Positions 21,781 through 53,484 of a stretch of DNA of 64,000 bases are shown piece by piece. Under the pieces are notes generated by a model. That model saw only the letters and a program-made list of their open reading frames with translations, was not told where the DNA came from and did no database searches. The DNA comes from Escherichia coli (lineage in GTDB: Bacteria; Pseudomonadota; Gammaproteobacteria; Enterobacterales; Enterobacteriaceae): the NCBI RefSeq assembly GCF_003018235.1, contig NZ_CP027437.1; one strand, 5' to 3'. How positions within the stretch are numbered: the first letter of the stretch is position 1; every line of letters starts with the position of its first letter. The position numbers were made by a program, and so were the translations under genes.

Positions 21781-24444
21781 TCAGAACTTATATTTCAGGC
21801 CCACCATCACTGCGGTGTCATTGTAGCCATTATCACCCAGCTGCACGCCCACATTACCCCAGACGCTGGCCGCCGGATTCAGATTGCCATTTACGCCAAG
21901 TTTAATTTCCCCCAGATTACGCGCCCCGTCTTGTTCGACTTTCACACCGTTCATTGAGACAGCAAAATCTTTACTGTTATGGATCCAGTTCATTTCAACA
22001 AAAGGTTCAAAGTCGTCACCGTGCGGACCGCTGTTTTTCTCCTGAGTACGAATAAAGGAGCGGAAACCAAGTCGGGTCTGGATGTTGTTATTTGCGTCAT
22101 TCTCAATACGTGAGCCATTGGCTTCCGTGTGCGCATTATGATCGACGCCCATCCAGATAGCCTGTGCCTGTGGCTGGAAGATCCACGTATATTTCGCCGC
22201 TTCCAGACCAAAGGATTTATTCAGGGCAAAACCGTAACCCGCTTCCAGCGAGACGGTTGCACCTTTCGCGCTATAGGATTCATAGGCTAATTCATCTCCT
22301 TTCACCGAGTTTTTAAACCAGCTATATTGCGCCCAGGCGTCAATGTATGCGCCTTTTTTACTGATGTCATCGGCAAACCAGGTGGCATACAGCCCTGCGC
22401 TATAGCCTCTGACACTCCCTTTCGAACGATAATCCGACACGCTGGAATGAGTTGAGTTGTAGTCGCGGGCATAACCAGCCATCACTCCCAAACGCCAACT
22501 GTCACTGTCGGTAAAACCACCGGTTAACAGATCCGCCCCTAACTGCGAGACGTAGCGATGCGAGGTCGTTCTCAACTGTCCGTTGCTGTCACGCCAGGCA
22601 TTATGCCCGCCAATTTGACGTAGCCAAAGTCGGCTTGAACGCTCCTGTTCAGTTACAGGATCGATGTAGCGCGTTTCACCTGCACGATCGTTCAGACGCA
22701 TAACAAAAAGAGTGTTAGCGGCTGCCAGGTTGGCGACGTAACTTCCAGCTTCGGGGCGCAGGACGGGGGTAGGCGTTTCTGTTGATTCTGAATTTCCCTC
22801 TGAGCTGTTATCCTCCTCATTCACTGACTGATAACTTGTCAAATACCAGTTTTTGCCTTGTTGTTTTAGTTGATATTCGAAAGCTCCAGCTGCAATCCTT
22901 GCATCACCTTGTCTGAAGGCATCTGCTGGAGATTCATCGCCATTCACAGTTATGAGTTCGATCCCATTTAGCGTGGCCGCGCCGCTTCCTCCAGCATTTT
23001 TCACATAGACGGTAGTTGACCCCGAAGTATTACCCTCAACAATCAGTCTGTCCGTAGCCGATTTATCATCACCTAATACGGTGCGGATATTAAGCTGACC
23101 ATTATCACCGACATAATTACCTTTTACGGTTAACGTTTTTCCCTGGGTAAATGTTTGACCATCATCATACGAAAGATTGATAATACTGTCTGAATTAGTC
23201 AGATGGGTAACAACGGAGTCATCTTTCATATTCCAGATTGTGTTTTCTGAAAGCTTCAGTGTGGTTGTGCCGCTAACGAGTTTAGTCGCTCCATTTAGAG
23301 TAGAGTCGGACGAAATTATGTTTAAGCCACCTCCAGTATTATTAACCAGAATATTATTACCAGGCGTGATAATACTTCGATTAAGGATGCTTACATCCGT
23401 TGTAGTTTTGTTAACATCAATACTATCCAAAGCACTTGAAAGTTCGACACTTGATAGTGCTATTTTGGCTTGAGAATCGATATTTGATGCATCAATTGAT
23501 ATTCCTTTATCTTGTTCTGATACCGCGGTGACATTGGAAAAAAATAACTCTCCACCATTGTATATTTTTGCAATGGGGGCTTTAGTGCCTTTTGTTGTAA
23601 TAGAACTATTTTTTATATCAATGTTACCTTGTCGAATAGCAACTGTATAACTTCCATGCTCCCCGGTTTCAAGTGCCACATAATCTAAATTAATATATGC
23701 TTTTTCCCCATTAGCATAAGCACCATAGCTATTAGTGCCATTAGTTGTTATGGAACCACCATTCATTTTTAAATCAGCACGGCTAATAACTTCGTAACTG
23801 TTAGAATCACTAACTTCATCATCTACAGCATCGACACATGTTCGAGACTCTCCAGGACTTGAACATGCAAGAACACCTACTGCATTTTCCCCATAGGTAA
23901 CAATGTTCGTTTTATCTGTGGTTTCAAGACGGGTGTTATTTTCCACAATCCCAGAATCATTAACCTGACTTAAAAGTCCCGCTGAATATGCCCCCCTCGT
24001 CTCGACTGAATTATCACCATTCATAACGATGGTGCCACCAAATTCACTGACTACTGCGCTGGCTGTTATCCCTCCATTAACATCTTGGTTATTTCCTTTG
24101 TCAGATACGCTTCCAGAGGTCTTAATATCGCTATCGCTTATATATAATACTTTGTTATGACTATCAACAGAAATACCATAAGATCCATCACCACTAGTCA
24201 TCACACTGGCATTATTTATATATCCAGTTACACCGTCATCCACTTTCACAGCATGGCTTTCGTCTTTAGTGGTTAGATACTCTCCATTACTTATCGAATT
24301 ATTATCTTTGATTTCAATCGGAGATTCTTCATCAGTTATATAGGAAAGTATACTATAATCATCCAACAATTGTGTTGCATATGCATTACCCACCGCCAGA
24401 GCAATAAGTCCCAAACTAAACCCGGGGAGTTTTTTCAGTTTCAT
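21781..24444 (-). CDS. Autotransporter (full length; sits where I recall K-12 having the ycgH pseudogene)
   Basis: 887-aa ORF with signal peptide MKLKKLPGFSLGLIALAVGNAYA, Ser/Thr/Asn/Gly-rich passenger, C-terminal beta-barrel ending ...VGLKYKF. Confidence 0.8.
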   Translation of the reverse strand: MKLKKLPGFSLGLIALAVGNAYATQLLDDYSILSYITDEESPIEIKDNNSISNGEYLTTKDESHAVKVDDGVTGYINNASVMTSGDGSYGISVDSHNKVLYISDSDIKTSGSVSDKGNNQDVNGGITASAVVSEFGGTIVMNGDNSVETRGAYSAGLLSQVNDSGIVENNTRLETTDKTNIVTYGENAVGVLACSSPGESRTCVDAVDDEVSDSNSYEVISRADLKMNGGSITTNGTNSYGAYANGEKAYINLDYVALETGEHGSYTVAIRQGNIDIKNSSITTKGTKAPIAKIYNGGELFFSNVTAVSEQDKGISIDASNIDSQAKIALSSVELSSALDSIDVNKTTTDVSILNRSIITPGNNILVNNTGGGLNIISSDSTLNGATKLVSGTTTLKLSENTIWNMKDDSVVTHLTNSDSIINLSYDDGQTFTQGKTLTVKGNYVGDNGQLNIRTVLGDDKSATDRLIVEGNTSGSTTVYVKNAGGSGAATLNGIELITVNGDESPADAFRQGDARIAAGAFEYQLKQQGKNWYLTSYQSVNEEDNSSEGNSESTETPTPVLRPEAGSYVANLAAANTLFVMRLNDRAGETRYIDPVTEQERSSRLWLRQIGGHNAWRDSNGQLRTTSHRYVSQLGADLLTGGFTDSDSWRLGVMAGYARDYNSTHSSVSDYRSKGSVRGYSAGLYATWFADDISKKGAYIDAWAQYSWFKNSVKGDELAYESYSAKGATVSLEAGYGFALNKSFGLEAAKYTWIFQPQAQAIWMGVDHNAHTEANGSRIENDANNNIQTRLGFRSFIRTQEKNSGPHGDDFEPFVEMNWIHNSKDFAVSMNGVKVEQDGARNLGEIKLGVNGNLNPAASVWGNVGVQLGDNGYNDTAVMVGLKYKF

Positions 24445-24843
24445 AGATTAACCATCCATTCATTGGATTAACAAACATTCCTGGTCAAATAACCTATGAG
24501 TTCAGATTACCAAAACAGAGGGTAAAGACAAAAACAAAAGCACAAAAAATTTAAATAGATAAACAGCGACAATATATAAATGATAAATAAGGCGGCATTA
24601 TCATTTTTCACCTTATTTTCATGACATTGATCACTTTGGGGTGACGATTTTGTTTAACAAATAACTCTTCGACATCAAAATTATTAATAGTTGCCATAGA
24701 AATTATTTCGGTGATATATAAAACCAACTGTGATAACACCAGGGTTGACAACTATTTGCGCAAAAATTCCTTTCCTTCAATGATCCAGGCGTTCACTGTC
24801 AGCACCCCATTCAGCCGCATACTGACAGTGAGAAACTGAAAGA

Positions 24844-28260: not shown

Positions 28261-28573
28261 GCTACGCCTCTGTTAAAAATGTTAATCAATGTTAAGTGAG
28301 GTAACAATAGCAAACTTGTACGAAATATGTGTACAGAATGATAAATTAATTTTTTGCATTTAGTGCTAATACATATAAAACAACAGGTTATGATAAAAAA
28401 TATTGCATCATTTAAATGACAACCTATACAAGAATTTTCGCCAACTCATCTTCAACTTTTTCCATTTTTTATCAATGTAAAGAAACAGTTATGTTTTGGT
28501 ATTAAAAGAAAGACACCGGAAGATATGTCTGTTACCGTCTTACTCTCGCCTCTCCCATTACCCTGGACAGTTA

Positions 28574-29785
28574 ATGCTTACCACCCTTATTTATCGTAGC
28601 CATATACGTGACGACGAACCTGTCAAAAAAATCGAAGAAATGGTTTCGATAGCAAATCGCAGGAACATGCAGTCTGACGTAACAGGGATCTTACTGTTTA
28701 ATGGTTCTCATTTTTTCCAGCTTCTGGAAGGTCCGGAAGAACAGGTTAAAATGATATATCGGGCTATATGCCAGGATCCACGGCACTATAATATTGTTGA
28801 GCTGCTGTGCGATTACGCGCCTGCTCGCCGTTTTGGCAAAGCGGGAATGGAATTATTTGATTTGCGCCTGCACGAGCGAGATGACGTTTTACAGGCCGTA
28901 TTCGACAAAGGCACATCAAAATTTCAGCTAACTTATGATGACAGAGCGCTACAATTTTTTCGTACTTTTGTCCTTGCAACCGAACAAGCAACCTATTTCG
29001 AGATCCCTGCCGAAGACTCCTGGCTTTTTATCGCTGACGGATCTGATAAAGAACTTGATTCCTGTACCCTTTCACCAACTATAAACGACCACTTTGCCTT
29101 TCATCCTATTGTCGATCCCTTATCGCGGCGGATAATCGCTTTTGAAGCCATTGTGCAAAAAAATGAAGACAGCCCGTCAGCTATAGCGGTTGGGCAGCGT
29201 AAAGAAGGGGAAATCTATACAGCGGATCTCAAAAGTAAGGCGCTTGCATTCGCGATGGCACACGCACTTGACCTCGGTGATAAAATGATTTCAATCAATC
29301 TATTACCTATGACCCTGGTTAACGAACCTGACGCAGTCTCTTTTTTACTTGATGAAATAAAGGCCAATGCTCTGGTGCCTGAACAAATCATCGTTGAATT
29401 TACTGAAAGTGAAGTCATATCTCGGTTTGATGAGTTTGCAGAAGCGATTAAATCGCTTAAGGCTGCCGGTATCAGTGTAGCAATTGATCATTTTGGCGCA
29501 GGTTTTGCCGGTTTGTTACTCCTGTCACGCTTCCAGCCTGACAGAATTAAAATCAGTCAGGAATTGATTACCAATGTTCATAAAAGCGGGCCACGGCAGG
29601 CAATTATTCAAGCGATCATAAAATGCTGTACATCACTTGAAATTCAAGTCAGTGCTATGGGCGTGGCAACACCAGAAGAGTGGATGTGGCTTGAATCCGC
29701 AGGAATTGAGATGTTTCAGGGAGATCTGTTTGCTAAAGCTAAATTGAATGGTATCCCTTCCATAGCGTGGCCAGAGAAAAAATAA
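28574..29785 (+). CDS. bluF: Blue-light sensor BluF (BLUF plus degenerate EAL)
   Basis: ORF 28496..29785 (TTG); ATG at 28574 gives MLTTLIYRSHIRDDEPVKKIEEMV... matching recalled BluF (403 aa). Confidence 0.9.
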   Translation: MLTTLIYRSHIRDDEPVKKIEEMVSIANRRNMQSDVTGILLFNGSHFFQLLEGPEEQVKMIYRAICQDPRHYNIVELLCDYAPARRFGKAGMELFDLRLHERDDVLQAVFDKGTSKFQLTYDDRALQFFRTFVLATEQATYFEIPAEDSWLFIADGSDKELDSCTLSPTINDHFAFHPIVDPLSRRIIAFEAIVQKNEDSPSAIAVGQRKEGEIYTADLKSKALAFAMAHALDLGDKMISINLLPMTLVNEPDAVSFLLDEIKANALVPEQIIVEFTESEVISRFDEFAEAIKSLKAAGISVAIDHFGAGFAGLLLLSRFQPDRIKISQELITNVHKSGPRQAIIQAIIKCCTSLEIQVSAMGVATPEEWMWLESAGIEMFQGDLFAKAKLNGIPSIAWPEKK

Positions 29786-29989: not shown

Positions 29990-30721
29990 GTGGCTTATTA
30001 CAGCATTGGTGATGTTGCTGAACGTTGCGGGATTAATCCTGTCACTCTCCGGGCCTGGCAACGCCGCTACGGTTTGTTAAAACCACAGCGCAGTGAAGGC
30101 GGACACCGACTCTTTGATGAAGAAGACATACAACGCATCGAAGAGATCAAGCGTTGGATAAGTAATGGCGTCCCTGTAGGCAAAGTTAAAGCATTACTGG
30201 AAACCACCAGCCAGGATACGGAAGATGACTGGAGCCGCCTGCAAGAAGAGATGATGTCAATTCTTCGTATGGCTAATCCTGCCAAACTACGCGCGAGAAT
30301 TATTTCACTGGGTCGAGAGTACCCAGTAGATCAATTGATTAATCATGTTTACCTTCCTGTTCGCCAGCGTCTCGTGCTTGATCACAACACCTCCCGCATT
30401 ATGAGCAGTATGTTTGACGGCGCATTAATTGAATACGCAGCAGCCTCGCTTTTCGAAATGCGCCGTAAGCCCGGTAAAGAAGCCATTCTGATGGCGTGGA
30501 ATGTTGAAGAGAGAGCACGATTGTGGCTGGAAGCATGGCGTTTATCATTGTCAGGATGGCACATTTCTGTTCTTGCTGATCCCATTGAAGCGCCGCGCCC
30601 GGAACTGTTCCCAACGCAAACATTGATTGTCTGGACAGGCATGGCACCAACGAGAAGGCAAAACGAACTTTTACAACACTGGGGTGAGCAAGGTTATAAA
30701 GTCATCTTTCATGCCCCCTAA
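29990..30721 (+). CDS. bluR: MerR-family repressor BluR (YcgE)
   Basis: 243-aa ORF with N-terminal MerR HTH ([26 protein letters not shown]). Confidence 0.9.
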
Positions 30722-30941: not shown

Positions 30942-31346
30942 ATGGATCAGGTTGTTGTTTTTCAAAAGATGTTTGAGCAAGTGAGAAAAGAGCAAAACTT
31001 CTCCTGGTTTTATTCAGAATTAAAACATCACCGTATTGCACATTACATTTATTATCTGGCTACGGATAACATCAGAATTATTACTCACGATGACACGGTT
31101 TTGTTATTAAGAGGAACCAGGAACCTGTTAAAAGTTAGTACGACCAAGAACCCTGCTAAAATAAAAGAGGCCGCATTGCTTCATATTTGCGGAAAATCAA
31201 CATTTCGGGAATACTGTTCAACACTGGCAGACGCGGGCGTTTTCCGGTGGGTTACTGATGTTAATCATAACAAACGCAGTTACTACGCCATTGATAATAC
31301 GCTTTTATATATTGAAGATGTAGAAAATAATAAACCATTAATCTAG
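30942..31346 (+). CDS. ycgX: Protein YcgX
   Basis: 134-aa ORF; synteny. Confidence 0.85.
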   Translation: MDQVVVFQKMFEQVRKEQNFSWFYSELKHHRIAHYIYYLATDNIRIITHDDTVLLLRGTRNLLKVSTTKNPAKIKEAALLHICGKSTFREYCSTLADAGVFRWVTDVNHNKRSYYAIDNTLLYIEDVENNKPLI

Positions 31347-31553
31347 CTAAAGTTGGATGCTTAAAAAATGCTTCATAATTCAGTAAGGCATTAGCATAAT
31401 GGAAATAAAAGTGCAGAGACTATTCATATGGATGAGTAATACTATCTTTTTATTGCCACCCATAAATAATCACCAGATCAATACTATCAACTTGATATTT
31501 GAAATGTGATCACTTGACTTTTGATACGTTATTTTATAGCGGTTAACATATTT

Positions 31554-31606
31554 ATAAAAAACAACGGGCGTGCCATACGCCCGTTTCAATACTTAACGCA
31601 CATGTG
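31554..31606. repeat. Orphan copy of the icd 3'-flanking terminator region
   Basis: About 90% identical over ~53 bp to 32414..32466; includes hairpin aacgggcg-tgccata-cgcccgtt. Confidence 0.7.
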
Positions 31607-32043
31607 TTTTGGTTTAGTCATCATCCGGTTATATGTATTTTAGCCAGGAATGGGTTAAACCATTCCTATATAACTAAAAAATTGAAACCTTATTCTCATG
31701 TCATGCTTATATTCGTCATTATCGTTATATAAAAAGGCCAACCATAATGTTTAGCAAATTGGCACAAAGTAGTATAAAGGCTATGTTTTAATTACAGGAT
31801 GTTCAGTCATTTGAATGTATAACATTTTAGCTAAACAAATCTAAAACGAAGTGAATAATTTATTGTTTTCACTAAATCTCATTTTGTTTAACATCCATTG
31901 AGATTCCTTGCTTTAAATTTTGTTTTATATAAGCAATCGTTTTAATTAATTTATTTTTTTGAAGGGTAATATACTCATATGCAATATAAAGAAATGAACA
32001 TCCAAATGAACTATATTAAATACCGTGGGATAAGACATAACAA

Positions 32044-32367
32044 ATGAAGTGGGTAGTAATTGACACGGTAATTCAACCTACATGCGGCATATCTTTTTCA
32101 GCCATATGGGGTGATATGAAAATGATCATCTGGTATCAATCTACTATATTTCTCCCTCCTGGAAGTATATTTACACCGGTTAAGCCTGGTATTATCCTTA
32201 AGGATAAAGAATACCCTATTACTATTTATAACATCACACCATTCAACAAGAATTTATGGAGTTTACTCAAAAGCAGTCAAGAGTGTCCTCCAGGAGAAAG
32301 CGAAATAACAAATAAATGTTTGCATAAGAGTTGTATTATAAAAATATGCCCATATGGGCTCAAATAA
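32044..32367 (+). CDS. iraM: Anti-adaptor protein IraM (stabilises RpoS)
   Basis: 107-aa [26 protein letters not shown]... matching recalled IraM; long AT-rich upstream region. Confidence 0.75.
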
Positions 32368-32413
32368 TGGGTTTTATATAAATATGCTCGATATGCTATT
32401 AATAATATCCACA

Positions 32414-32466
32414 TAAATAAAACAACGGGCGTGTTATACGCCCGTTTCAATATTTAACACATGTAG
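32414..32466 (-). terminator. icd intrinsic terminator
   Basis: Hairpin aacgggcg-tgttata-cgcccgtt followed on the minus strand by a T-run immediately after the icd stop. Confidence 0.7.
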
Positions 32467-32469
32467 AGA

Positions 32470-33720
32470 TTACATGTTCTTGATGATCGCATCACCAAAC
32501 TCGCTGCATTTCAGCAGTTTAGCGCCTTCCATCAGACGTTCGAAGTCATAGGTTACAGTCTTGGCGTTGATTGCGCCTTCCATACCTTTAACAATCAGGT
32601 CTGCGGCTTCAGTCCAGCCCATATGGCGCAGCATCATCTCAGCGGAGAGAATAATAGAGCCTGGGTTTACTTTGTCCTGACCGGCATATTTCGGCGCAGT
32701 ACCGTGGGTGGCTTCAAACAGGGCGCATTCGTCACCGATGTTTGCGCCTGGGGCGATACCGATACCGCCGACCTGTGCAGCCAGAGCGTCAGAAATGTAG
32801 TCACCGTTCAGGTTCATACAGGCGATAACATCATATTCAGCCGGACGCAGCAGGATCTGTTGCAGGAATGCATCAGCAATCACATCTTTAATGACGATCT
32901 CTTTGCCGGTATTCGGGTTTTTAACTTTCATCCACGGGCCGCCGTCGATCAGTTCACCGCCAAACTCTTCACGCGCCAGCTGGTAGCCCCAGTCTTTAAA
33001 CGCGCCTTCGGTGAACTTCATGATGTTGCCTTTGTGCACCAGGGTCACAGAGTCACGATCGTTAGCAATTGCGTATTCGATCGCTGCACGAACCAGACGT
33101 TTGGTGCCTTCTTCCGAACACGGCTTAATACCGATACCGCAATGTTCCGGGAAGCGAATTTTCTTCACGCCCATCTCTTCACGCAGGAATTTAATCACTT
33201 TCTCGGCGTCGGCAGAGTCAGCTTTCCATTCGATACCCGCATAAATGTCTTCCGAGTTTTCACGGAAGATAACCATATCGGTCAGTTCAGGGTGTTTAAC
33301 CGGGCTTGGAGTGCCCTGATAGTAACGTACCGGACGCAGGCAGATGTAGAGATCCAGTTCCTGACGCAGGGCAACGTTCAGAGAGCGAATACCGCCACCT
33401 ACTGGAGTGGTCAGCGGGCCTTTAATGGCAACGCGATATTCACGAATCAGATCAAGGGTTTCAGCAGGCAGCCAGACATCCTGACCATAAACCTGTGTGG
33501 ATTTTTCACCGGTGTAAATTTCCATCCAGGAGATTTTACGCTCGCCTTTATAGGCTTTCTCGACTGCAGCGTCGACCACTTTCAGCATGGCTGGGGTTAC
33601 ATCTACACCGATTCCATCACCTTCAATGTAAGGGATAATCGGATTTTCAGGAACGTTGAGTTTGCCGTTTTGCAGGGTGATCTTCTTGCCTTGTGCCGGA
33701 ACAACTACTTTACTTTCCAT
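32470..33720 (-). CDS. icd: NADP-dependent isocitrate dehydrogenase
   Basis: 416-aa [41 protein letters not shown]... matching recalled Icd; intact 3' end. Confidence 0.97.
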
Positions 33721-33942: not shown

Positions 33943-34180
33943 CCAAAGACAGTATTTTCCCGACATTCAAATAAAGTATTAAATATCAATTATTTACACC
34001 AGATTTTAAGCAATAAAAAAACCACCAGAGATAACTAACAGGGTGCTATTTGGTCAAAATTTGACATTACTCGATTCAGCGACTATCTCACTTTGAGCAC
34101 TATTGGGAAAATTATCAAAAGTCATGGTTGAAGCGACAAGCAACGAGTAAATTATGGCATCCCCCCTTTTTGAGGTTCAC

Positions 34181-34267
34181 ATGAAACGCTTTGCACTGAT
34201 AGCTGTGAAACTCGTTGCCTTTACTGGTTCTGCATCTGCTGCAACCGAAGAAATCAACTTCAAGTAA
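34181..34267 (+). CDS. 28-aa micro-ORF with signal-peptide-like sequence (MKRFALIAVKLVAFTGSASA/ATEEINFK)
   Basis: ATG preceded by gagg; hydrophobic core plus A-x-A cleavage motif; absent from the ORF track (below length cutoff). Confidence 0.35.
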   Translation: MKRFALIAVKLVAFTGSASAATEEINFK

Positions 34268-34300
34268 CAGAAACACTATATAACAATGGAGTGTTGACAA

Positions 34301-34588
34301 ATGGATACTACCGAAGAACGCAATGGAACATATTTCTACAGAGGACACCCGAACCTGTCCAAAATAGAACTACTCAACGTCATATTCCTTGAAGAATTCT
34401 GTAAGGAATTGGGGATTGATTCGGTATCAGGTGCAGCAATCTTATCTGGTCAACCGTGGCTGGGTACAAGAGCGAAGCCGCAAGGGGCAACCCTGGGAAC
34501 AAGTGTTGTCTCAAAGTATGCGCGTATACTGATGAGAGATGCACGCATGCCTTTTGGTATTTGTGGGTGTAAGGATGCAGAAATCTAA
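34301..34588 (+). CDS. Hypothetical protein (95 aa)
   Basis: ORF in the rluE-inserted cassette; no recognisable domain. Confidence 0.4.
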   Translation: MDTTEERNGTYFYRGHPNLSKIELLNVIFLEEFCKELGIDSVSGAAILSGQPWLGTRAKPQGATLGTSVVSKYARILMRDARMPFGICGCKDAEI

Positions 34589-34736
34589 TAAGCTTGCTGC
34601 AATTATCGCTCGTTGGGTCCCGTGGATTGGTTGGGCTTCACTGTCGATGAGTCTTTACAGGGTTTCGACTCGTACCCAGGAAAAATACAATCTGATTGCC
34701 AAACCTCAAGACCGTATTAAGTGGACTTCCTTCTAA
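34575..34736 (+). CDS. Small hydrophobic protein (53 aa, Trp-rich putative membrane segment)
   Basis: ATG at 34575 with aagga RBS; AAIIARWVPWIGWASLSMSL hydrophobic stretch; stop overlaps the start of the next ORF (TAATG). Confidence 0.4.
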   Translation: MQKSNKLAAIIARWVPWIGWASLSMSLYRVSTRTQEKYNLIAKPQDRIKWTSF

Positions 34737-35071
34737 TGGCGACAACAATCACAGACGAAGTTTTAGCACTGTTCCGTGATGAGATTCCAGGTTATCAGGA
34801 TGACCACGGGAAGGAAATTCCGTTAGAACTGGACTCTGATTTGTTCGACTATCCACGAGATGATTTAGAGGACGCTATACGGAAATACAAAGAGAGGTTT
34901 GGGATTAACCTGGATAATCTGGACTGGTCTTTGTACCTTCCATGGGAGTCTGCACCATTGCTTCAACGATGGTTCAAGCTCAAGCGGGAAGAGGTAGAAA
35001 CAACACGTTTACCGTTAACTGTACGGATGTTTGCAGAATCAGCAGAAGCGGGAAAATGGCTGTATCAGTAG
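34736..35071 (+). CDS. Hypothetical acidic cytoplasmic protein (111 aa)
   Basis: ORF 34721..35071 with ATG at 34736 translationally coupled to the upstream small ORF; resembles small enterobacterial proteins of unknown function (family not verified). Confidence 0.55.
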   Translation: MATTITDEVLALFRDEIPGYQDDHGKEIPLELDSDLFDYPRDDLEDAIRKYKERFGINLDNLDWSLYLPWESAPLLQRWFKLKREEVETTRLPLTVRMFAESAEAGKWLYQ

Positions 35072-35403
35072 AATAAAAAAGAAGGCTGCGATGCCCCTCT
35101 TATTACTGCTGATGATAGTAGTGGTAAAGCATCATCCTAAACTTGAACAGTGAAGTGCTGTCACCCATCAGTAATACAGAAACACTATTTTTCATACCAG
35201 TATTTATTCAATTCATCAATGTAAAATGTGTTCATTGGGCCATATTTATCACCATGCAGCCACACAACCGCTGCTCACTAACCCAGGTATTGATGAAACC
35301 GCGCTGAAGAGCCTGAACCCTGAACCTCTAACGAGTACCTTAAAAGTCCAATGCAATCCGACACTGTGCTACCCTCTGCGTATAGCTCTATTTGGAATTT
35401 ACC

Positions 35404-36042
35404 ATGAAATACTTTAGCGATTCTAAATCTTCTTTTAGAAAAAAACAGGTTAGTCGACTAAACTCGCAACACTCCACTAAGCGTAAACCTGAAAATCAGC
35501 CCACGCGCGTGATCCTGTTCAATAAACCCTACGATGTTCTTCCGCAGTTCACCGATGAAGCCGGACGCAAAACATTAAAAGAATTCATCCCGGTTCAGGG
35601 CGTTTATGCAGCAGGTCGTCTTGACCGCGATAGCGAAGGGTTACTGGTGCTGACCAATAACGGCGCGTTGCAGGCGCGTTTAACCCAGCCGGGTAAACGC
35701 ACCGGAAAAATCTATTATGTGCAGGTGGAAGGTATTCCCACACAAGACGCACTTGAAGCCTTGCGCAATGGCGTAACCTTAAATGATGGCCCTACCCTGC
35801 CCGCAGGCGTAGAGCTGGTTGACGAACCCGCGTGGTTATGGCCGCGGAATCCACCAATTCGTGAACGCAAAAGTATTCCCACCAGCTGGCTGAAGATCAC
35901 CTTATATGAAGGACGTAATCGCCAGGTGCGCCGCATGACCGCCCATGTTGGTTTCCCCACGCTGCGACTGATTCGCTATGCGATGGGTGATTACTCTTTG
36001 GATAATCTTGCCAACGGCGAATGGCGAGAAGCGACAGATTAA
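35404..36042 (+). CDS. rluE: 23S rRNA pseudouridine synthase RluE with cassette-supplied replacement N-terminus
   Basis: ORF 35392..36042; ATG at 35404 gives [49 protein letters not shown]...; the body matches recalled RluE. Confidence 0.88.
35429..35439. repeat. Right copy of the 11-bp direct repeat CTTCTTTTAGA
   Basis: Identical to 33932..33942. Confidence 0.7.
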
Positions 36043-42024: not shown

Positions 42025-42110
42025 ATATGTCCTTTTATCATTAAACACAACCAACCAATTGATTTAATTAAATAAATCTCACTACAGAAAGTGCCAAAAA
42101 TCGCAAATTG

Positions 42111-42131
42111 ACTACACCATTAACTACACCG
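42111..42131. repeat. 21-bp direct repeat ACTACACCATTAACTACACCG (candidate att core, left copy)
   Basis: Perfect copy at 53485..53505; imperfect similarity continues for ~40 bp to the right of both copies. Confidence 0.7.
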
Positions 42132-42286
42132 TTCGGTGCACTGTATGAAACAACGTGGAACAAATAGACACAAGAAATATATGGGCGGGTAATTTATCTA
42201 TGTGAAAGCGTGCCGACTAATAGGGCGTTAATGTCGATATGGGGATCCCCATATCGGGAACCATACCGGAATTTTTGCCAGGTTAA

Positions 42287-42409
42287 ATGTTAACCGCTGC
42301 CCTGTTAACATTTTTACCAAAAAGGTAGTTAACATTTTTTGCACGCAACCATATGAATCATAAAGACAAAATCAACAACAACGCTTCATCAGGCAGTTAA
42401 CATGTTAAC
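42287..42409. promoter_or_regulatory. Cluster of GTTAACAT / ATGTTAAC half-sites, including the 14-bp palindrome GTTAACATGTTAAC (candidate iterons/operators or packaging site)
   Basis: Motif at 42287..42294, 42304..42311, 42328..42335 and 42396..42409 in a gene-free ~0.8-kb terminal region. Confidence 0.4.
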
Positions 42410-42833
42410 TACTACAAAACGGTAATTTTTTCTCTGCGTGAGAGTGGGCGCGGTGTCCGAATTGTTCGTTGTTCGTGGCTAACCGCTCCCCCCCCTATAC
42501 CGGATTTTTTTCCGGTTAATCTTTAATCAGGCTGGTGGGGGTTACATACCCTTGATCACCGTAATGATGATTCAGGTATGCACCTTTCCCCCCGATGGGG
42601 TAAAAGCATCAACCGTAACGGTAATATCTGCCTTGATGGTCTGCGTGGTCATTATGACCATTCAGCCAATGACCTTAATCAGAATTTTTCGCTAAAAAAT
42701 GATGTTGGCCACGTCGTCCGGAAAGCACAAAATCCCGTCGATTTTTAATTAACGGTTAAACCGCCTTTTTGTCACGGTGTGTCACTGGTTGCCACTCACC
42801 GTCACGATGTCCGCTCGCCTGGCTGTAAATTAA

Positions 42834-42852
42834 ACTACGAAAATTTCGTAGT
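42834..42852. promoter_or_regulatory. 19-bp perfect palindrome ACTACGAAAATTTCGTAGT (followed by GGGACTACAAGTCCC palindrome)
   Basis: Read directly; lies upstream of the left-end hypothetical gene. Confidence 0.4.
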
Positions 42853-42925
42853 TGTGAGGGACTACAAGTCCCGCGCAAATTTCCCCCGGTCCCCTCAAAT
42901 TGAGGTTGCCGGAAATATCAACCAG

Positions 42926-43207
42926 TTACCGCCGTAACCGCTCCAGCTTCTTCCAGTGGTACGTAATTTTCTCTTTCTCCCGGTACATCTCAACGCGGCG
43001 ATTGTAGGCCAGCATTTCCAGAACGCGGATCCGTATGTCGCGCATATCTACATCGTTAAGCTGGATACCATCACGGCGCATCACCTCAGCAACCACACGC
43101 GCATAATTTTCAGCGGTCACGCTGTCCGGCTGCGTTGCCTGTTCGTCAGCCTGCTGGCTGATTCCTGCAACGCGGTGGATTAATCGCAGTATTTCGGCTT
43201 CTGTCAT
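42926..43207 (-). CDS. Hypothetical protein (93 aa)
   Basis: ORF 42926..43219; probable start ATG 43207 (MTEAEILRLIHRVAG...) with G-rich SD. Confidence 0.5.
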   Translation of the reverse strand: MTEAEILRLIHRVAGISQQADEQATQPDSVTAENYARVVAEVMRRDGIQLNDVDMRDIRIRVLEMLAYNRRVEMYREKEKITYHWKKLERLRR

Positions 43208-43241
43208 TGTGCCCCCCATCGTTCTAATCGTCTGGTGTCGT

Positions 43242-43295
43242 CGGGTCCTTCCTGGAATTATGGCCCGTTACGGGGCGGCGACCTCGCGGTTTTTC
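43242..43295. repeat. Inverted repeat, left arm (terminator-like hairpin plus T-run)
   Basis: Reverse complement of 43887..43940; the inner 32 bp are identical. Confidence 0.75.
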
Positions 43296-43521
43296 ACTAT
43301 TTATGAGATTTTTTAGGGGGTGGTTGTTGTTTAATTGTTTGTCATATCTATTTGATAACTAAGTAAAAATAGAGAGCAATACAACAACCTGATAGTGTTT
43401 TTTGATGCTACAAATAAAAAAAATGCTAATTGAATCAAATAGTTTTACAAAAATACGTGGTTGTTGTATTGCGTATTTGATGGCGTAACAGAAAGTGATT
43501 TTGAACTTTGCTGTTCTGTGA

Positions 43522-43731
43522 CTACTGATTGTTCCATGCTGGCGCGGCGAACGCTTCGGCATGACGCCCCCCAGCCAGAAAACCAGCCATTTTATTTCGT
43601 GCTTTGCTCACATCTTCCGGTGAGTAGCCGTAAATCTGTAAACCTTCATTGAATCGATGTTCTGTTTCTTCACTTGAGTACTCGTCGCTCTCCGATGAAA
43701 TCAGCCTGGCAACTTCAGTCTGCGTAGCCAC
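43522..43731 (-). CDS. Hypothetical acidic protein (69 aa)
   Basis: ORF inside the inverted-repeat-bounded cassette, downstream of CATGTCCGG repeats. Confidence 0.4.
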   Translation of the reverse strand: MATQTEVARLISSESDEYSSEETEHRFNEGLQIYGYSPEDVSKARNKMAGFLAGGRHAEAFAAPAWNNQ

Positions 43732-43753
43732 TCCTCACCTCACAATCACGACA

Positions 43754-43860
43754 AAACCGGTCATGTCCGGTTTACATGTCTATTTTTTGCGCATGTCCGG
43801 TTCATGGAAAGCCTATTTTTATATTTTTCATATAGTTAACTTGCAGAGAAACCGGACATG
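43754..43860. promoter_or_regulatory. Three copies of the CATGTCCGGTT(T) motif, including the 20-bp palindrome AAACCGGTCATGTCCGGTTT (candidate operators)
   Basis: 43754..43773, 43792..43806 and 43848..43860 (inverted). Confidence 0.45.
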
Positions 43861-43886
43861 GATCCCGGAAAATTTTCATAAATAGC

Positions 43887-43940
43887 GAAAAACCGCGAGG
43901 TCGCCGCCCCGTAACGGGTCCATATGCCGGAAAGGACCCG
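43887..43940. repeat. Inverted repeat, right arm; acts as minus-strand intrinsic terminator of the capsid operon
   Basis: Hairpins followed (on the minus strand) by a T-run, 30 bp after the stop of the 137-aa gene. Confidence 0.75.
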
Positions 43941-43969
43941 TAAAAAAGCCGGATTTCTCCGGCCTTGTC

Positions 43970-44383
43970 TCAGATGGTTTTCAGTATGCGATCGATGTCG
44001 CCGTCATCGCCCGGGTTTCTGCCATCGTATGCCATGCCAGCTGATACGGCTTGCGGGCTGTGCATGTCCATAAAGTTTTCAAAGGCTGCGGTAAGCTCTG
44101 GTGCAACCTTCAGGCGTTCCTGCTCTATGGTCATGCTAAGGATGCTTTTAGCCGTACCAACATCGATACAAGGCACGTTTGCCATTGCACGTAACAGCGG
44201 CTGATAGTCGCCAGATTCATCAAGCGCCATAATCGCATCAGAGCGCGGCTTGTCCTTCTCTTCCAGGCTGTTAAGTTGATATACGGCCTCGTAGGTTGAT
44301 AAACCTCTGTCAGCCATTGCCCGCGCTTCGGCCTTAAATTTACTCGCCAGCGGTAGCGTCATGATGCTTTCATTCGTTGCCAT
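43970..44383 (-). CDS. Hypothetical protein (137 aa), capsid-module associated
   Basis: ORF directly downstream of the decoration-like gene. Confidence 0.5.
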   Translation of the reverse strand: MATNESIMTLPLASKFKAEARAMADRGLSTYEAVYQLNSLEEKDKPRSDAIMALDESGDYQPLLRAMANVPCIDVGTAKSILSMTIEQERLKVAPELTAAFENFMDMHSPQAVSAGMAYDGRNPGDDGDIDRILKTI

Positions 44384-44395
44384 CGTTACCCCTGC

Positions 44396-44731
44396 TTATC
44401 GCGCCAGCGGCTGAACGGATACGCCAGAACCCGCAAAGGCGGCGCATTTTTTCGCGTCGGTGTCGACGCTCTCAGGCCAGTTTACAGCGGCGATATTGAA
44501 TATCCCCGCCTTGTAGCACTGTGCTGATTTCTGCTTTGACGTGTCCACGGGGTACGACGTCAGGTAAACAGCCTTGCCCGATTCCTGACCATCCCACGGT
44601 TTAAACTCGCCATTGTCCGCCAGCATCAGCGGGGTAAATTCCTGAATAACGCCAGCATCAGCGGCAAAATGTACCAGCGTCGTGGCGACCTGCTGACTGC
44701 CTGCAAATAACTCAATGTATGGAGTGTCCAT
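44396..44731 (-). CDS. Lambda gpD-like head decoration protein
   Basis: 111 aa; aligns to recalled lambda gpD (TPLMLxxxxxxxxxWDG..., xYKxGxF, WPE, KKxxAFAGxxxS). Confidence 0.7.
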   Translation of the reverse strand: MDTPYIELFAGSQQVATTLVHFAADAGVIQEFTPLMLADNGEFKPWDGQESGKAVYLTSYPVDTSKQKSAQCYKAGIFNIAAVNWPESVDTDAKKCAAFAGSGVSVQPLAR

Positions 44732-44742
44732 AGAATTCCCCG

Positions 44743-45798
44743 TTAACCAATTTTGACGGTAACAAATTTGCGAATATCTGCCGGTACCGGCTGCGGTGCG
44801 CTGTGTGTCTGCACGTACTCAATCGCCGGATCGCCGTCTTCAATCCAGTTTTTCGGGTAGAACATGTTTTGCGTTGCGCCCGTTCTTACCGCTTCCTGAT
44901 CCATAATCGCACCATAGGCCACCAGCCCTTTATTGTTGGTGTTACCCAGGACCAGCAAATCAGGCTCAAGGAAATATTTTTCGGTGCCGTCGCTGTCAGT
45001 GTATTTGCCGGAATAGACGATAAGGGCCAGATCACCAAGATAGCCTTTAAAGCTCACCACTTCGCCCAGGTTTTTACAGGCCAGTTCGGCGGCGGATTCT
45101 GAACCACGGGAAAGATCGTACAGCTCACGGAATTTTTTAAAGCTGCGTAATGTGCGCCATACCTCAGCGCCCATAATCATGACGTTTGCGGGGCAACCAG
45201 CCTGATCAGCATAAAGCTCGATGTCATAGATTGGGTCGTGCATGTCTTTATCCTGCTCGGACCATTTTTTACCATTGGCCTGCTCTATGATGCAGTTTTC
45301 CGGTATTTTCCAGTCGATTTCATAGCGTTCTATGCCTTCGCCCTCAATGATGTTTTTTCCGGTCGTTACCGCATTCACCGCCAGCCATTCCACGCGTGCC
45401 TTAATGGCGTTTATCTGGCGGCGCACGTTGCCAGTAATCAGGCGCATGCGTCGGTATGTAGGGTCGTTAAGCTGTGCCGGATCTTCTCCAGCCATGCGCA
45501 TGATGGTTTTTGTTGGATCGATTTCATGCTTTGGCTTCATGTAGCCGGGTTTAATCGTGCTGGTTTCGTACCCTTTATCGCGCTGGACATGGCTACCCAC
45601 CATAGGCGAACAGAACGCTGACATCGTAACCTCTTCAATGTCCAGGGTGTCCAGCATGATGCTTTGGGTGTTGAAGGTCGCCACGTTCGGGAAAAACAGC
45701 GTGGTAAACAGCGGACTGAATTTAAATTCAGCAATATCCCCGCGATTCAGGTACGCGAAAAGCTGGTTAGTGTTAAGTGCCGTTGCTTTTCCTGCCAT
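44743..45798 (-). CDS. Lambda gpE-like major capsid protein
   Basis: 351 aa; conserved blocks KFxFxPLF, TPGYxKPKHE, DPxYRRxR, YPKNWxxxGDP relative to recalled lambda gpE. Confidence 0.8.
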   Translation of the reverse strand: MAGKATALNTNQLFAYLNRGDIAEFKFSPLFTTLFFPNVATFNTQSIMLDTLDIEEVTMSAFCSPMVGSHVQRDKGYETSTIKPGYMKPKHEIDPTKTIMRMAGEDPAQLNDPTYRRMRLITGNVRRQINAIKARVEWLAVNAVTTGKNIIEGEGIERYEIDWKIPENCIIEQANGKKWSEQDKDMHDPIYDIELYADQAGCPANVMIMGAEVWRTLRSFKKFRELYDLSRGSESAAELACKNLGEVVSFKGYLGDLALIVYSGKYTDSDGTEKYFLEPDLLVLGNTNNKGLVAYGAIMDQEAVRTGATQNMFYPKNWIEDGDPAIEYVQTHSAPQPVPADIRKFVTVKIG

Positions 45799-46004
45799 TA
45801 TTCACCCCCATGAGTCTGATTCATGCCCAGCGCCGCGCGTAAATAGGCGCGTACCTGCCAGCCTGTTGACGGCTCAACCATCGCCAGCGGATCAAGTCCT
45901 GCCGCAATGCCTGCTTTTACGTTCTGCTGGTGGCGTTCCTTGAGCGCCTCCACGATGTCGGGGCTTATGTACACCGAAACACCGCCTTTTTTCTCTTCTG
46001 CCAT
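45798..46004 (-). CDS. Hypothetical protein (68 aa) upstream of the capsid gene
   Basis: ORF with start/stop overlap with the capsid gene. Confidence 0.4.
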   Translation of the reverse strand: MAEEKKGGVSVYISPDIVEALKERHQQNVKAGIAAGLDPLAMVEPSTGWQVRAYLRAALGMNQTHGGE

Positions 46005-46166
46005 TGGTTGAAATTCCTCTTTAACAAAAAAAACATAACTGGATGAAAATCCAGTTGTGATTATAATTGTGATTGCACTTTGTGCAACGATATTGAGTTA
46101 TATTGCAAATTATGAAATGATTATCCCGATCATGTGTGTCAGTGCACCAAAAAAAACTCATATGCA

Positions 46167-46207
46167 AAAGCCCGATAAGACCCCTCTGACCTTATCGGGC
46201 TTTTTTA
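46167..46207. terminator. Bidirectional intrinsic terminator between replication and capsid modules
   Basis: Stem gcccgataag/cttatcgggc with TTTTTT on the plus strand and a T-run on the minus strand. Confidence 0.55.
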
Positions 46208-46409
46208 TCTGTCGGCAAAGACATCGAACAAAAATTAATCACAATCATCATCTTTTTTTCATCAATGCGATTAAAAACAATAAATTACGCTCATGATGAT
46301 GATGACGATAAAACCACAAAAATGCGCTTTTTTCCGCGCCACCCGTCCCGTGGATGGTCCCGCCAGCCAGGAGGACCCATAAAAAAGCCGGATTGCTCCG
46401 GCTCTGCTC

Positions 46410-46682
46410 TCACTTCTGCGGGTAGTTGCGCCATATTGTTTTCCCTATACCATCTATCCCCATTTGTTTTTCAGTGCGATCAACCGACCGTTTCAGCGCG
46501 CCAAAACCATCCGGCGGCTCCGGTGGCCTCTGTGCCTTCCTGGAACATTCCAGCCGTCGCATTGCCACCTGTGCGCGTTCCTTGTCTGTCTCCACCAGCT
46601 GCATGACTTCACCCCATCGCGCGGCCGCCCTCCGGTAAAAGCCTTTCGACTCGAGTTCCTCCGCTATGCGGTCATGTACCAT
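46410..46682 (-). CDS. PerC-like transcriptional activator
   Basis: ORF 46410..46802; probable start ATG 46682 (strong SD, 10 nt after the SSB stop); motif GFYRRAAARWGEVM resembles the PerC RGLWRRAADLW motif. Confidence 0.5.
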   Translation of the reverse strand: MVHDRIAEELESKGFYRRAAARWGEVMQLVETDKERAQVAMRRLECSRKAQRPPEPPDGFGALKRSVDRTEKQMGIDGIGKTIWRNYPQK

Positions 46683-46692
46683 CCTCACCCCC

Positions 46693-47103
46693 TCAGAACG
46701 GAATACCATCACCGTAAGGGTCATCGCCTCCCGCTGGTGGCTGATTACCCTGTGTGCCTGTGGTTGTGCGTCGGCTCCCGCCAGGACGTGCCGTACGGGC
46801 ACTGATTACGCTGTCTGCAATGACCTGATAACCCTGCCGCGTTTCGCCGTTCTGTCCGGTCCACTGGCTTACCTGCATGTTACCCGCCACGCTCACCAGT
46901 TCGCCTTTGTGGTGTTTTGCCAGTGCGTCGGCCTGTCTGCCAAACGCCAGGACGGATAACCACATCGTCGCCGTTCCGTCATCTGTCTGGCTGCATGGCA
47001 GGGGAACCGCCATACTCGCCATCGCCATTTGTGTCCCTTTGCTGGTGGTCTTTAACTGCGGGTCAGCCACCAGCCGTCCGTAAGCCGCTATCTGTGCTGT
47101 CAT
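46693..47103 (-). CDS. Single-stranded DNA-binding protein (SSB-like)
   Basis: 136 aa; OB-fold-like N-terminus and C-terminal acidic tail ...DDPYGDGIPF (SSB signature DDDIPF). Confidence 0.7.
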   Translation of the reverse strand: MTAQIAAYGRLVADPQLKTTSKGTQMAMASMAVPLPCSQTDDGTATMWLSVLAFGRQADALAKHHKGELVSVAGNMQVSQWTGQNGETRQGYQVIADSVISARTARPGGSRRTTTGTQGNQPPAGGDDPYGDGIPF

Positions 47104-47342
47104 GCTGTCTGCTCTCCGGTTTTAACGTTGATGGTTGTTACCTGTTCCGCTTCGGCAATCTCCCGTTCTGTCAGCGTGGCAAAGTTTGCGGCCGCTGTGG
47201 TCATGAATGCGCTTATCAGTTCTGGATGTTCCTTCGCGTATCCTTCCCGCGTGTGGCGGTCGATGATTTTTATCGCCACCCTCAGCCAGTGTTCTGTAAG
47301 GTCAATGGCGCGGTGATCTGTCTTTTTGTGGCTTACCTTCAT
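47100..47342 (-). CDS. Hypothetical protein (80 aa)
   Basis: 4-nt overlap with the SSB start. Confidence 0.45.
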   Translation of the reverse strand: MKVSHKKTDHRAIDLTEHWLRVAIKIIDRHTREGYAKEHPELISAFMTTAAANFATLTEREIAEAEQVTTINVKTGEQTA

Positions 47343-47345
47343 GAT

Positions 47346-47669
47346 TTACTCCAGGGTACCGCTATTGCTGCAGTCGTTAACCGGATACCAGGCAAATACC
47401 CATGACTCACCGCAGTGAACAAACTTCTTATCTGGCAGATAAAGGCACTCGAACATTCCCTCATCAGGACTATGCGGACTCACGCCAAGCTCACTGGTCA
47501 GCACGGGTAAGATTTCGCGGTAAGTATCCCCAGTGCCGAAATGGTTGACCTCACAAAGCGCCCATGCAGCAATTGGGCTATACCATTCCGTGCCGTCGTC
47601 GTCTTTGAACTTCGCCCACCAGCCAGGAAGGGCGGTTGATAAGCTCAGTGTTTCAATTTCAGATTTCAT
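47346..47669 (-). CDS. Hypothetical protein (about 107 aa)
   Basis: ORF 47346..47714; start placed at MKSEIETL. Confidence 0.45.
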   Translation of the reverse strand: MKSEIETLSLSTALPGWWAKFKDDDGTEWYSPIAAWALCEVNHFGTGDTYREILPVLTSELGVSPHSPDEGMFECLYLPDKKFVHCGESWVFAWYPVNDCSNSGTLE

Positions 47670-47915
47670 AAATTCACCTTCTGTATTTTGTCCTGCTGTT
47701 CGATTTTTATTCATTACTCACCACTCCTCACTTTTACTCCTCACTTTTTAAGTTGCCTCACTTCGTCTCACTTGAGATTTTCGTGTTTTCTATTAATTTG
47801 TTTTATAAGATTTTTTTCACTCCTCACTTTTGAGGATGTATACAGGTGAGAAAGTGAGTAATTGTGTTAATATTTTGTAAAAACCTCACCGTTACTCACT
47901 TTTGCTACTCACTTT

Positions 47916-49325
47916 TTACAGTGGTCCTACATCATCACCATCAATGTAAATCACGGCGTCTTTTTCCAGTTTGGCTAACCATCGCCGCATATTTTTCACG
48001 TCATACCCAAGCCGTTTCATGTCATCACGTAACAGCGCAATAGTGCACTTGTCGCCGTTCTGTGTGCGTGAACGTATGCACCCCCATAGCGCGGTATGGT
48101 TTTCCGTCTTGTTGCCTGCCTCCTCGATGCGCTCCAGTTCAACAGGAGGACGCGGCTTATCCACCACCACCAGCGACGTGATTAATTCGCCGTCAGCGTC
48201 GGTAAAAAGCTCCACTACCCGCAAATCGTAGGCGGCTTCTTTGAGTTCCTCTGCGTCCTTCATTTTTGTGCATGAGATAACCAGGGCTTCGCTTCCTGCG
48301 TCCTCTCTGCGTATCCGGTATTCAGCGTCCAGTGATGCACGGAATGCACTGGAACCACGCGCGCCCTTTGTTTCATCTTTGCCGGAATGGTGAACCACCA
48401 GCACCGTGGACCCTGTGCGTCGTTTCAGTTCGTCACATCCACGGATAAACGCCCCCATGTCACGGGAGTCATTTTCATCATTGCCGCCAAAGCAACGCGC
48501 CAGCGTATCCAGAATAATCATTCGAACAGGTTTACCCGTTTCCCGCTCCACCTGGCTGGCTGCGATAACCATTTCATCAACATCAAGCGGGGCCGCCGGA
48601 AAGACCGGACGGTTTACCAGATACAGATTTTTCACCTGTACATCGTGCACAACCTCCCAGGCTTTTATGCGACGCGGAACGCCTATACCACCTTCACCAA
48701 CCACATAGAGAACAGAACCATGTGCAACCCTGCGGCCTCCCCAGTGGCGGCCCGTTGAAATGTGACACGCCCACGAACCAGCAAGAAACGATTTATAGGA
48801 TCCGCTCGCTCCGTATATGCTGCACAGCGACGCCGCCGGAATAATGCCCTTAACCACGTAATCCAGTTGCGTGTCATATCCGGTAGATCCAACGCTCATC
48901 GGTAGCGTGGTGTTTCGTTGGGGGTTTTTTGCCATTACCAGGCTTTCCCCTCTCTCCCATGTCTCCCGCAACCGTGGTAGCTGGTCGGTCCATTTCTCCA
49001 GCAATTCGAAATTTTCAGAAAGCAGTCGCGCTTCCCTGACTCCGGCAATCGCCAGTTTCGTCGCGATGGTTAGCAACTGCTCTTCGTCAATATTTCCGGC
49101 GCGTATCACTGTGACCCTGTGCCGCCCCTCATCAACAATTTGCAGATTATCCAGTTCGCTTAACTGATAACGGCCCAGGTAAACGGGAGGCGTCGGGTCT
49201 CCCGCCTTTTTGGCCTGTGCAACGATGTAATGCTCTGCAAATGAGTGAGCATCAACACCCGCGAAAATAATCGCGTCGGTGTACTTATCTTTCGGTAATA
49301 GTTTTACGTTCGGTGCCAGTTTCAT
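47916..49325 (-). CDS. Replication protein with RecA-fold (RepA/AAA_25-type) helicase core, Pri-Rep-like
   Basis: 469 aa; Walker A-like GASGSYKS, Walker B-like MIILDTLAR, SGKDETKGARGSSA motif typical of RepA-type helicases of satellites and plasmids. Confidence 0.7.
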   Translation of the reverse strand: MKLAPNVKLLPKDKYTDAIIFAGVDAHSFAEHYIVAQAKKAGDPTPPVYLGRYQLSELDNLQIVDEGRHRVTVIRAGNIDEEQLLTIATKLAIAGVREARLLSENFELLEKWTDQLPRLRETWERGESLVMAKNPQRNTTLPMSVGSTGYDTQLDYVVKGIIPAASLCSIYGASGSYKSFLAGSWACHISTGRHWGGRRVAHGSVLYVVGEGGIGVPRRIKAWEVVHDVQVKNLYLVNRPVFPAAPLDVDEMVIAASQVERETGKPVRMIILDTLARCFGGNDENDSRDMGAFIRGCDELKRRTGSTVLVVHHSGKDETKGARGSSAFRASLDAEYRIRREDAGSEALVISCTKMKDAEELKEAAYDLRVVELFTDADGELITSLVVVDKPRPPVELERIEEAGNKTENHTALWGCIRSRTQNGDKCTIALLRDDMKRLGYDVKNMRRWLAKLEKDAVIYIDGDDVGPL

Positions 49326-49621: not shown

Positions 49622-49626
49622 TATTT

Positions 49627-50716: not shown

Positions 50717-50813
50717 AGCTACCTCGATACTCTGGTTATCGTTGGTGGTTAGACGCCCTGCATGTGTTGCGAGCACTGCGGGGCGTTGCTTAATTTGAGT
50801 AACACCACTCAAA

Positions 50814-50895
50814 CTGTGCGCACAGATTAAAATTATGTATGCGCACACATCAATACTTAACATCTCGTTTTTTTTGCTGTATTGTGTGCGCCCAT
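50814..50895. promoter_or_regulatory. Operator cluster between divergent operons: palindrome CTGTGCGCACAG plus two related TGTGCGC sites
   Basis: 50814..50825 perfect 12-bp palindrome; 50835..50850 near-palindrome; about 50883..50893 third copy. Confidence 0.5.
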
Positions 50896-53476: not shown

Positions 53477-53484
53477 CACAATTA

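Follow-up and report, generated by a model that had tools for sequence, protein, structure and literature searches.

We analysed a 64,000-nt stretch of the Escherichia coli contig NZ_CP027437.1 (hereafter, the window), in which a short AT-rich segment carrying iraM lies between ycgX and icd. The segment is bracketed by two copies of the icd 3′ untranslated region (3′UTR) and terminator, designated copy 1 on the ycgX side and copy 2 on the icd side (Table 1). The 807-bp segment between the copies had a GC content of 30% compared with 50% in icd, and its composition is therefore not host-like. The first-pass annotation, which was made from the sequence of the window, had described icd as intact and the site as free of a prophage. 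This description held, as icd is a complete ORF, neither an integrase nor a prophage adjoins it in the window, and no integrase or excisionase ORF was found between 31346 and 32470.

Table 1. Features of the iraM locus in the window and, in the lower rows, of the corresponding island in strain WL297 (contig L015), the latter listed in order from the ycgX side to the icd side.
Feature	Position	Strand	Remarks
bluF	28496-29785	+	
bluR	29990-30721	+	
ycgX (DUF1398)	30942..31346	+	36.5% GC; PF07166, E = 1e-47; phrog_413, E = 1e-41
ymgL	31399-31509	+	small ORF after ycgX
Putative arm relic resembling the e14 attL P-arm	31507..31548		degenerate TTTTGATA-type repeats; directly outside copy 1
Copy 1, fossil icd 3′UTR and terminator	31553..31605	-	hairpin 31563-31585; 861 bp away from icd
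iraM upstream region	31607..32043	+	27% GC; homologous (72-75%) to the long-allele region leading into a complete YmgB-family gene (PF10798)
ymgK	31747-31791	+	14-codon ORF within the iraM upstream region
5′ stub of a lost ymgB/ariR-like gene	ATG 31979 to ~32015	+	within the iraM upstream region
iraM, 107-aa RssB anti-adaptor (predicted)	32044..32367	+	35% GC; convergent with icd; between both copies
Copy 2, icd 3′UTR and intrinsic terminator	32414..32464	-	hairpin 32424-32446; U-tract on the - strand
icd	32470..33720	-	intact 416-aa ORF; target gene of the integration hotspot
WL297 copy 1	14177-14242 of L015		ycgX side of the island
WL297 complete YmgB/AriR-family gene (PF10798)			second item from the ycgX side, after copy 1
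WL297 iraM variant			after the YmgB/AriR-family gene
WL297 trkG and ~70 nt of the Rz 3′ end			after the iraM variant; 89.5% identical to Rac-like phages with contiguous Rz-trkG
WL297 IS relic			after trkG/Rz
WL297 458-aa orphan protein	18792-20168 of L015		between the IS relic and an e14-like arm
WL297 copy 2	20493-20559 of L015		icd side

A repeat search of the window returned the two copies as a direct repeat of 48 nt with 88% identity (31553-31600 versus 32414-32461; spacing, 861), and the alignment could be extended with one 2-nt indel as far as ACATGT, giving 47 identical positions in 54 columns. The repeat unit of about 52 nt (88% identical when ungapped; chance matches expected, 0) bore out the pair of terminator copies that the first-pass annotation had placed on either side of iraM. 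Because copy 2 stops 5 nt short of the icd stop codon (32470-32472), the unit corresponds exactly to the icd 3′UTR plus terminator. Both copies are predicted intrinsic terminators on the minus strand, that is, in the direction of icd. Copy 2 (fold z = -5.4) probably acts as the working icd terminator, facing the convergent iraM, and its core is identical in the O157 prophage at icd, in phage 21, in Escherichia whittamii and in the E. coli strains with an empty site described below. Copy 1 differs from copy 2 in a CC rather than a TT loop, one T>C change and the 2-nt indel. In K-12, copy 1 has two stem-breaking changes and its hairpin no longer folds; copy 1 is probably a decaying by-product without a conserved role.

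The first-pass annotation had raised the possibility that the second copy belongs to a common REP or terminator family. The 23-nt hairpin (AACGGGCGTG-NN-ATACGCCCGTT) was found at two places only in the 64-kb window, with 0 matches in 100 shuffles, and a profile scan of the window revealed neither a third terminator copy nor an older fossil; the arm columns of this profile included empty-site flanks, and its extension into the flank of copy 1 was therefore circular and was set aside. Among 5420 E. coli genomes, a 191-nt probe containing the repeat unit matched a median of 2 and a maximum of 4 places per genome, and an Rfam search of the unit found no family near the gathering score. The idea that copy 1 is an independent member of such a family, or a convergent terminator of ycgX/ymgL unrelated to icd, agrees with the terminator prediction for copy 1 in the window, but it is effectively refuted and retains almost no probability, given the low copy number, the extension of the similarity across the unpaired 3′UTR and, in the long allele described below, into icd codons, the U-tract on the minus strand, which is wrong for ycgX/ymgL, and the failure of the hairpin to be conserved in K-12. 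An integron attC reading of the hairpin was also discarded, as inspection showed no RYYYAAC/GTTRRRY cores.

The window IraM is 91-94% identical over its full length of 107 aa to clusters named IraM by NCBI, and on this similarity its product is assigned as an RssB anti-adaptor. A Pfam hmmscan of the protein (32044-32364) returned no family at E ≤ 0.01, and its homologues carry a precomputed PF11183 (PmrD) match. The gene iraM encodes a PhoP-activated RssB anti-adaptor (PMC11825808, citing Bougdour et al. 2008) of the IraM/IraL/RssC family, and it is variably present, being absent from CFT073 (PMC4045071). IraM also matched the phage family phrog_4407 (E = 1e-50), and homologues with 64-66% amino acid identity were present in lambdoid prophages of E. 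coli and E. albertii, Stx2 prophages among them. As in the window, the phage gene is small, AT-rich and antisense to its neighbours; in contrast to the window, it occupies a moron slot between Q/stx2AB and nanS-p/holin and not an att site. The DNA similarity to these phage homologues (72% nt) is confined to the iraM CDS, with no homology outside it.

The presence of the segment among E. coli strains is not universal. Its 781-bp interior was found in 3939 of 5426 complete E. coli genomes (~73%) and is missing from ~27%, and in nearly all genomes the iraM segment is located at one place (median 1). A contiguous ymgL-terminator-icd arrangement, the empty site, was present as a precise single-copy site in 1037 of the 5426 (~19%), including Nissle and the type strain DSM 30083. 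In two genomes aligned across the site, the flank on the copy 1 side was joined to a copy-2-type core, with one copy and no scar. All six empty-site strains sampled, which fall into four identity classes, had the same YcgX protein (WP_000373104.1) and the TT loop, and none of them had a hybrid single copy with the CC loop.

Integration of e14 and phage 21 into icd has been documented (Hill et al. 1989 J Bacteriol 171:4083; Wang et al. 1997 J Bacteriol 179:5705; both listed in PMC12803456) and summarised (PMC6379469). Our comparison showed that the terminator and icd 3′ end of the window are also carried by phage 21, by the O157 prophage with int and xis beside icd and by ~28 other lambdoid phages. 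The homology between phages and window starts at 32417, within 3 nt of the outer edge of the repeat (32414), and extends as far as the attB core (32628-32634), which lies ~165 nt inside icd. The annotated Int arm sites of phage 21 are immediately adjacent to its terminator. The link of the repeat to the icd hotspot was therefore upheld as to the target gene, but the known 21/e14 crossover lies at that core and thus outside the repeat. This position also bears on the proposal that the repeats are live recombination sites of a non-autonomous cassette moved in trans by the integrase of an icd phage. The precise, scar-free presence and absence of the segment is what such a cassette would produce, and integrases acting at icd are common in E. 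coli prophages. However, the repeats exclude the core and differ from each other at several positions, copy 1 decays in K-12, the segment stays at one place, and the sampled empty sites lie on one flanking haplotype, which argues against frequent movement. We consider the cassette proposal very improbable.

Phages also exchange the terminator with their hosts. In strain PAR (contig L017, 1521-1661), the displaced host-side terminator/icdC, located beside a sitA-bearing 21-like prophage, has a phage-21-specific variant, and this variant shows phages overwriting the host icd 3′ end. Such overwriting explains why copy 2 shares its sequence type with the phages, the single copies and E. whittamii, and why copy 1, once cut off, has drifted. 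The C in AATACTTAA is common to copy 1 of the long and short alleles and absent from every copy-2, single-copy and phage version. We also looked for a phage-borne terminator nearer to copy 1 than copy 2 is and found none, the best phage match being 89.6%. In the O157 strain 180-PT54 (contig L004), a 21-type int/xis prophage is located at icd, and no match to ycgX or iraM was found; the whole relic region seems to be missing in O157 strains.

In K-12, both copies are present and are followed by icdC (168 nt) and e14 mcrA; the duplicated icd fragment beside e14, to which the first-pass annotation had referred, was thus seen. A third, diverged terminator with TTTTGATAA arm repeats is located at the e14-icd junction. 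K-12 holds three terminator copies because e14 carries this diverged homologous terminator together with the arm repeats. The iraM structure, located outside e14 in K-12 and also found in e14-free strains, therefore predates e14 and does not depend on it. The suggestion that the iraM segment is the footprint of an event at the e14 hotspot was accordingly supported, with corrections: the hotspot is the same, but the structure is not peculiar to e14-free strains and the event predates e14. A published report locates iraM "on the e14 prophage" (PMC4045071). This placement is inaccurate, as iraM lies outside e14 attR, beyond icdC, and is also present in the e14-free window. The text of that report mentions icd 0 times and does not mention the flanking terminator repeat, the empty site or the long allele.

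A 72%-identical IraM (P0003) led through contig L014 to a long allele of the locus, which is present in 19 complete genomes. In WL297, a 6.3-kb island is situated between ycgX and icd (Table 1), and the repeat measures 66 nt with a spacing of 6316 nt. Copy 1 of WL297 is followed by TTAACATATTCTTGAT, the equivalent of the icd stop codon and the last ~4 codons (~15 nt of the ORF); past the shared 3′UTR, 19 of 27 positions match icd, in register and without gaps. Copy 2 of WL297 is abutted by an e14-type arm (z = 17.6 versus e14), and the comparison with e14 that the first-pass annotation had proposed thus revealed both a homologous terminator in e14 and an e14-like arm beside the long-allele copy. 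Arm-type repeats were absent beside copy 2 of the window (z = 1.6-1.8). No integrase is annotated in the long allele. The 458-aa orphan protein has two internal repeats of ~155 aa, no Pfam match and weak PHROG matches (phrog_11707).

Compared with the long allele, the window lacks ~215 bp after copy 1, a 460-bp ymgB-like stretch and the iraM 3′ flank through to copy 2. Because arm and terminator are directly adjacent in phages, the right junction of the long allele is primary and that of the window is derived. The two haplotypes differ strongly around the island (88% identity in ycgX, 65% in the ymgL spacer and 79% nt in iraM), against 98.6% in bluR. The C in AATACTTAA in copy 1 of both alleles argues for a common origin, and the long and short alleles would then derive from one integration event; alternatively, they could be independent insertions of related elements. 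The order of iraM and trkG is unlike that of a single lambdoid late region, and hence the island may be composite.

We consider it probable that the locus consists of stacked integrations at the icd attB and that the iraM segment is what erosion has left of a lambdoid-type integrative element. Phages such as 21 and e14 carry their own last ~165 nt of icd together with the 52-nt 3′UTR/terminator. On integration, the phage copy would become the working icd end, and the previous end with its terminator would be pushed to the far side of the prophage, a displacement that is directly visible in the K-12 icdC beside e14. Copy 2 would then be the terminator now serving icd, and copy 1 the terminator displaced by an earlier integration. 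Later deletions would have taken away the integrase, the body of the phage and the piece of icd coding sequence that had been displaced, and the host-useful moron iraM would have survived them. We infer a single integration behind the short and long alleles, the order of these deletions and the integrase that acted; we observed the repeat, the empty site, a phage-borne terminator with the outer edge of the repeat, IraM homologues in phages, and a long allele that retains relics. The view of the first-pass annotation that the duplicated flank is the footprint of an integration event thus gained support from the empty sites, the phage-borne terminator and the long allele.

The resemblance to e14 and phage 21 lies in the target gene, the replacement of the icd 3′ end and terminator, the displacement of the old end as a direct repeat, and the identity in sequence of the outer boundary of the repeat and the phage-borne terminator. 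The iraM event differs from them in being older than e14 and outside it, e14 forming a third layer in K-12, which has both. It differs further in that the window repeat comprises 52 nt of non-coding DNA (66 nt in the long allele) and not ~217 nt, with no integrase or phage body. As an integration of the 21/e14 type should duplicate ~217 nt, the complete loss of ~165 nt of icdC must be assumed for the window, and even the long allele keeps only ~15 nt of it. Several further points count against a phage-scar origin. The window has no integrase, and in it copy 2 is not accompanied by arm repeats nor copy 1 by a remnant of icd coding sequence. The long and short alleles have diverged widely, and no phage with iraM or its upstream region beside the icd att site was found among sequenced phages, the matches of phage records to the island being confined to the iraM CDS, trkG/Rz and the IS pieces.

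Taken alone, the short allele also fits a simple local duplication. A tandem duplication of the icd terminator followed or accompanied by illegitimate insertion of an AT-rich iraM fragment would require no phage integration. It would be in keeping with a window repeat made up of non-coding sequence only, without integrase, arm sites or icdC, and with local alignments in which the sequence on the right of the window copy 1 matched icd no better than shuffles did. Yet it leaves unexplained the coincidence of the edges of the repeat and the phage segment, the icd coding relic and the e14-type arm beside copy 2 in the long allele, and the phage-family cargo with its Rz fragment. We therefore regard a purely local duplication as unlikely.

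A separate question concerns the polarity of the empty site. The iraM segment may be ancestral, and B2-type strains (Nissle, DSM 30083 and GN02050) may have lost it by recombination or slippage between the 52-nt repeats; we hold this proposal to be evenly balanced between true and false, and it is compatible with the phage-scar origin. An exchange confined to the 15 identical nt at the start of the repeat would yield exactly the empty site, and the shared YcgX protein of the six sampled strains fits a single event. The ST648-type strains IMT16316 and MS6198, which we take to be phylogroup F and close to B2, carry iraM. Moreover, the divergence between the long and short haplotypes in ycgX and iraM is far above that of normal E. 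coli alleles, suggesting that the island predates the diversification of the species. On the other side, all sampled empty-site copies have the TT loop and a copy-2-type 3′UTR, a state equally expected if the insert was never present. Since terminator types are overwritten by phages, as in PAR, the sequence type cannot decide between gain and loss. E. whittamii, the only outgroup obtained from a hairpin scan of genome contigs, has a single TT-type terminator with a different icd neighbour and therefore does not polarise the change either.

Traces of a still earlier event may lie outside copy 1. The arm relic listed in Table 1 aligned in register with the e14 arm and with the arm beside WL297 copy 2 in local alignments. 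With the shared A-run excluded, its score was reached by 2-3 of 1000 mononucleotide shuffles (p ~ 0.002-0.003), which constitutes moderate evidence. In empty-site strains, the single copy is flanked by the same DNA as these ~40 nt outside copy 1, and the single terminator of E. whittamii is followed by an e14-like arm motif. These alignments provide moderate evidence that even the empty configuration may be an old attL whose interior survives as ymgL and ycgX, and ycgX probably came in as cargo of a prophage layer that is older still and lies outside copy 1. The layers would then have been deposited in the order ycgX, iraM and, in K-12, e14.

By extension, serial integrations at the icd attB might have built an AT-rich stress/biofilm regulatory neighbourhood comprising ycgX, the ymgB-like gene with iraM (and trkG), and e14, each incoming phage driving the earlier icd end, terminator and arm outward and leaving a domesticated moron; we put this forward tentatively and think it rather doubtful. 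The nearby bluRF-ycgZ-ymgA-ariR module might also be such a deposit. The ymgB/ariR-like gene of the long allele is a paralogue of ariR, which is located ~4.5 kb away.

Further differences were observed elsewhere in the window. Identity to WL297 is ~93% on the ymgF-ycgX side and ~96.5-97% on the icd-phoQ side, and ~3 kb of the window in the ymgD/ymgF area (~21764-24837) are not in WL297. A 1.5-kb insert between the icd promoter region and rluE (33943-35424) contains an STM2901-family/DUF1493 gene pair. It was present in 370 of 5426 complete E. coli genomes, including IMT16316 and MS6198, a distribution that hints at the lineage of the window. Between phoQ and roxA, a stretch of ~11.6 kb (42033-53629) is absent from WL297 and E. 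whittamii and encodes a tyrosine integrase with an arm-binding domain (52229-53479), an Ash-family protein, an AAA_25 primase/helicase-like protein and a Phage_cap_E capsid protein. From these predicted products, it looks like a P4-like or capsid-forming PICI-type phage satellite.

A scan of IMG/VR with a conserved 19-base motif from the iraM upstream region gave 19 matches, of which 17 belong to prophages called at icd with the host iraM flank included. These 17 calls (within L024-L041) span icdC, copy 2, iraM and copy 1 and end exactly at the start of ycgX. The other two matches (L028 and L042) were rejected as chance AT-rich hits with no IraM, YmgB or YcgX. Automated prophage callers thus over-extend e14/21-type prophages through iraM to ycgX, counting host-side relics as prophage.

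So-called grounded cryptic prophages retain morons that benefit the host (reviewed in PMC6379469). The iraM locus resembles them in that mobility and structural genes are lost and AT-rich cargo is kept (iraM and, in the long allele, trkG with the ymgB-like gene), with an Rz fragment and an IS relic remaining as debris in the long allele. It differs in the extreme degree of reduction, to one 324-bp gene in 861 bp, and in that the iraM relic is not among the K-12 cryptic prophages named in that review (DLP12, e14, Rac, Qin and CPZ-55, of nine). It was already known that icd is a hotspot, that phages carry an icd end and that iraM is variably present. In the literature searched, we found neither the terminator repeat around iraM and its precise empty site nor the long allele and the layered reading.

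Collectively, the iraM locus opens no new mechanism and belongs to fairly ordinary E. coli genome history. An origin by stacked integrations would explain how a PhoP-controlled stabiliser of RpoS came to adjoin icd, and the analysis of the empty site would explain why iraM is missing, with a precise junction, from roughly one in four E. coli strains, Nissle and the type strain among them. The 52-nt direct repeat could delete iraM. The locus may serve to illustrate how prophages decay in layers at a single attachment site, the terminator copies being the markers. If the serial-layer reading is true, such terminator fossils would be datable stratigraphic markers, and phage homologues of IraM, such as those beside stx2, would be tools for manipulating host RpoS turnover.
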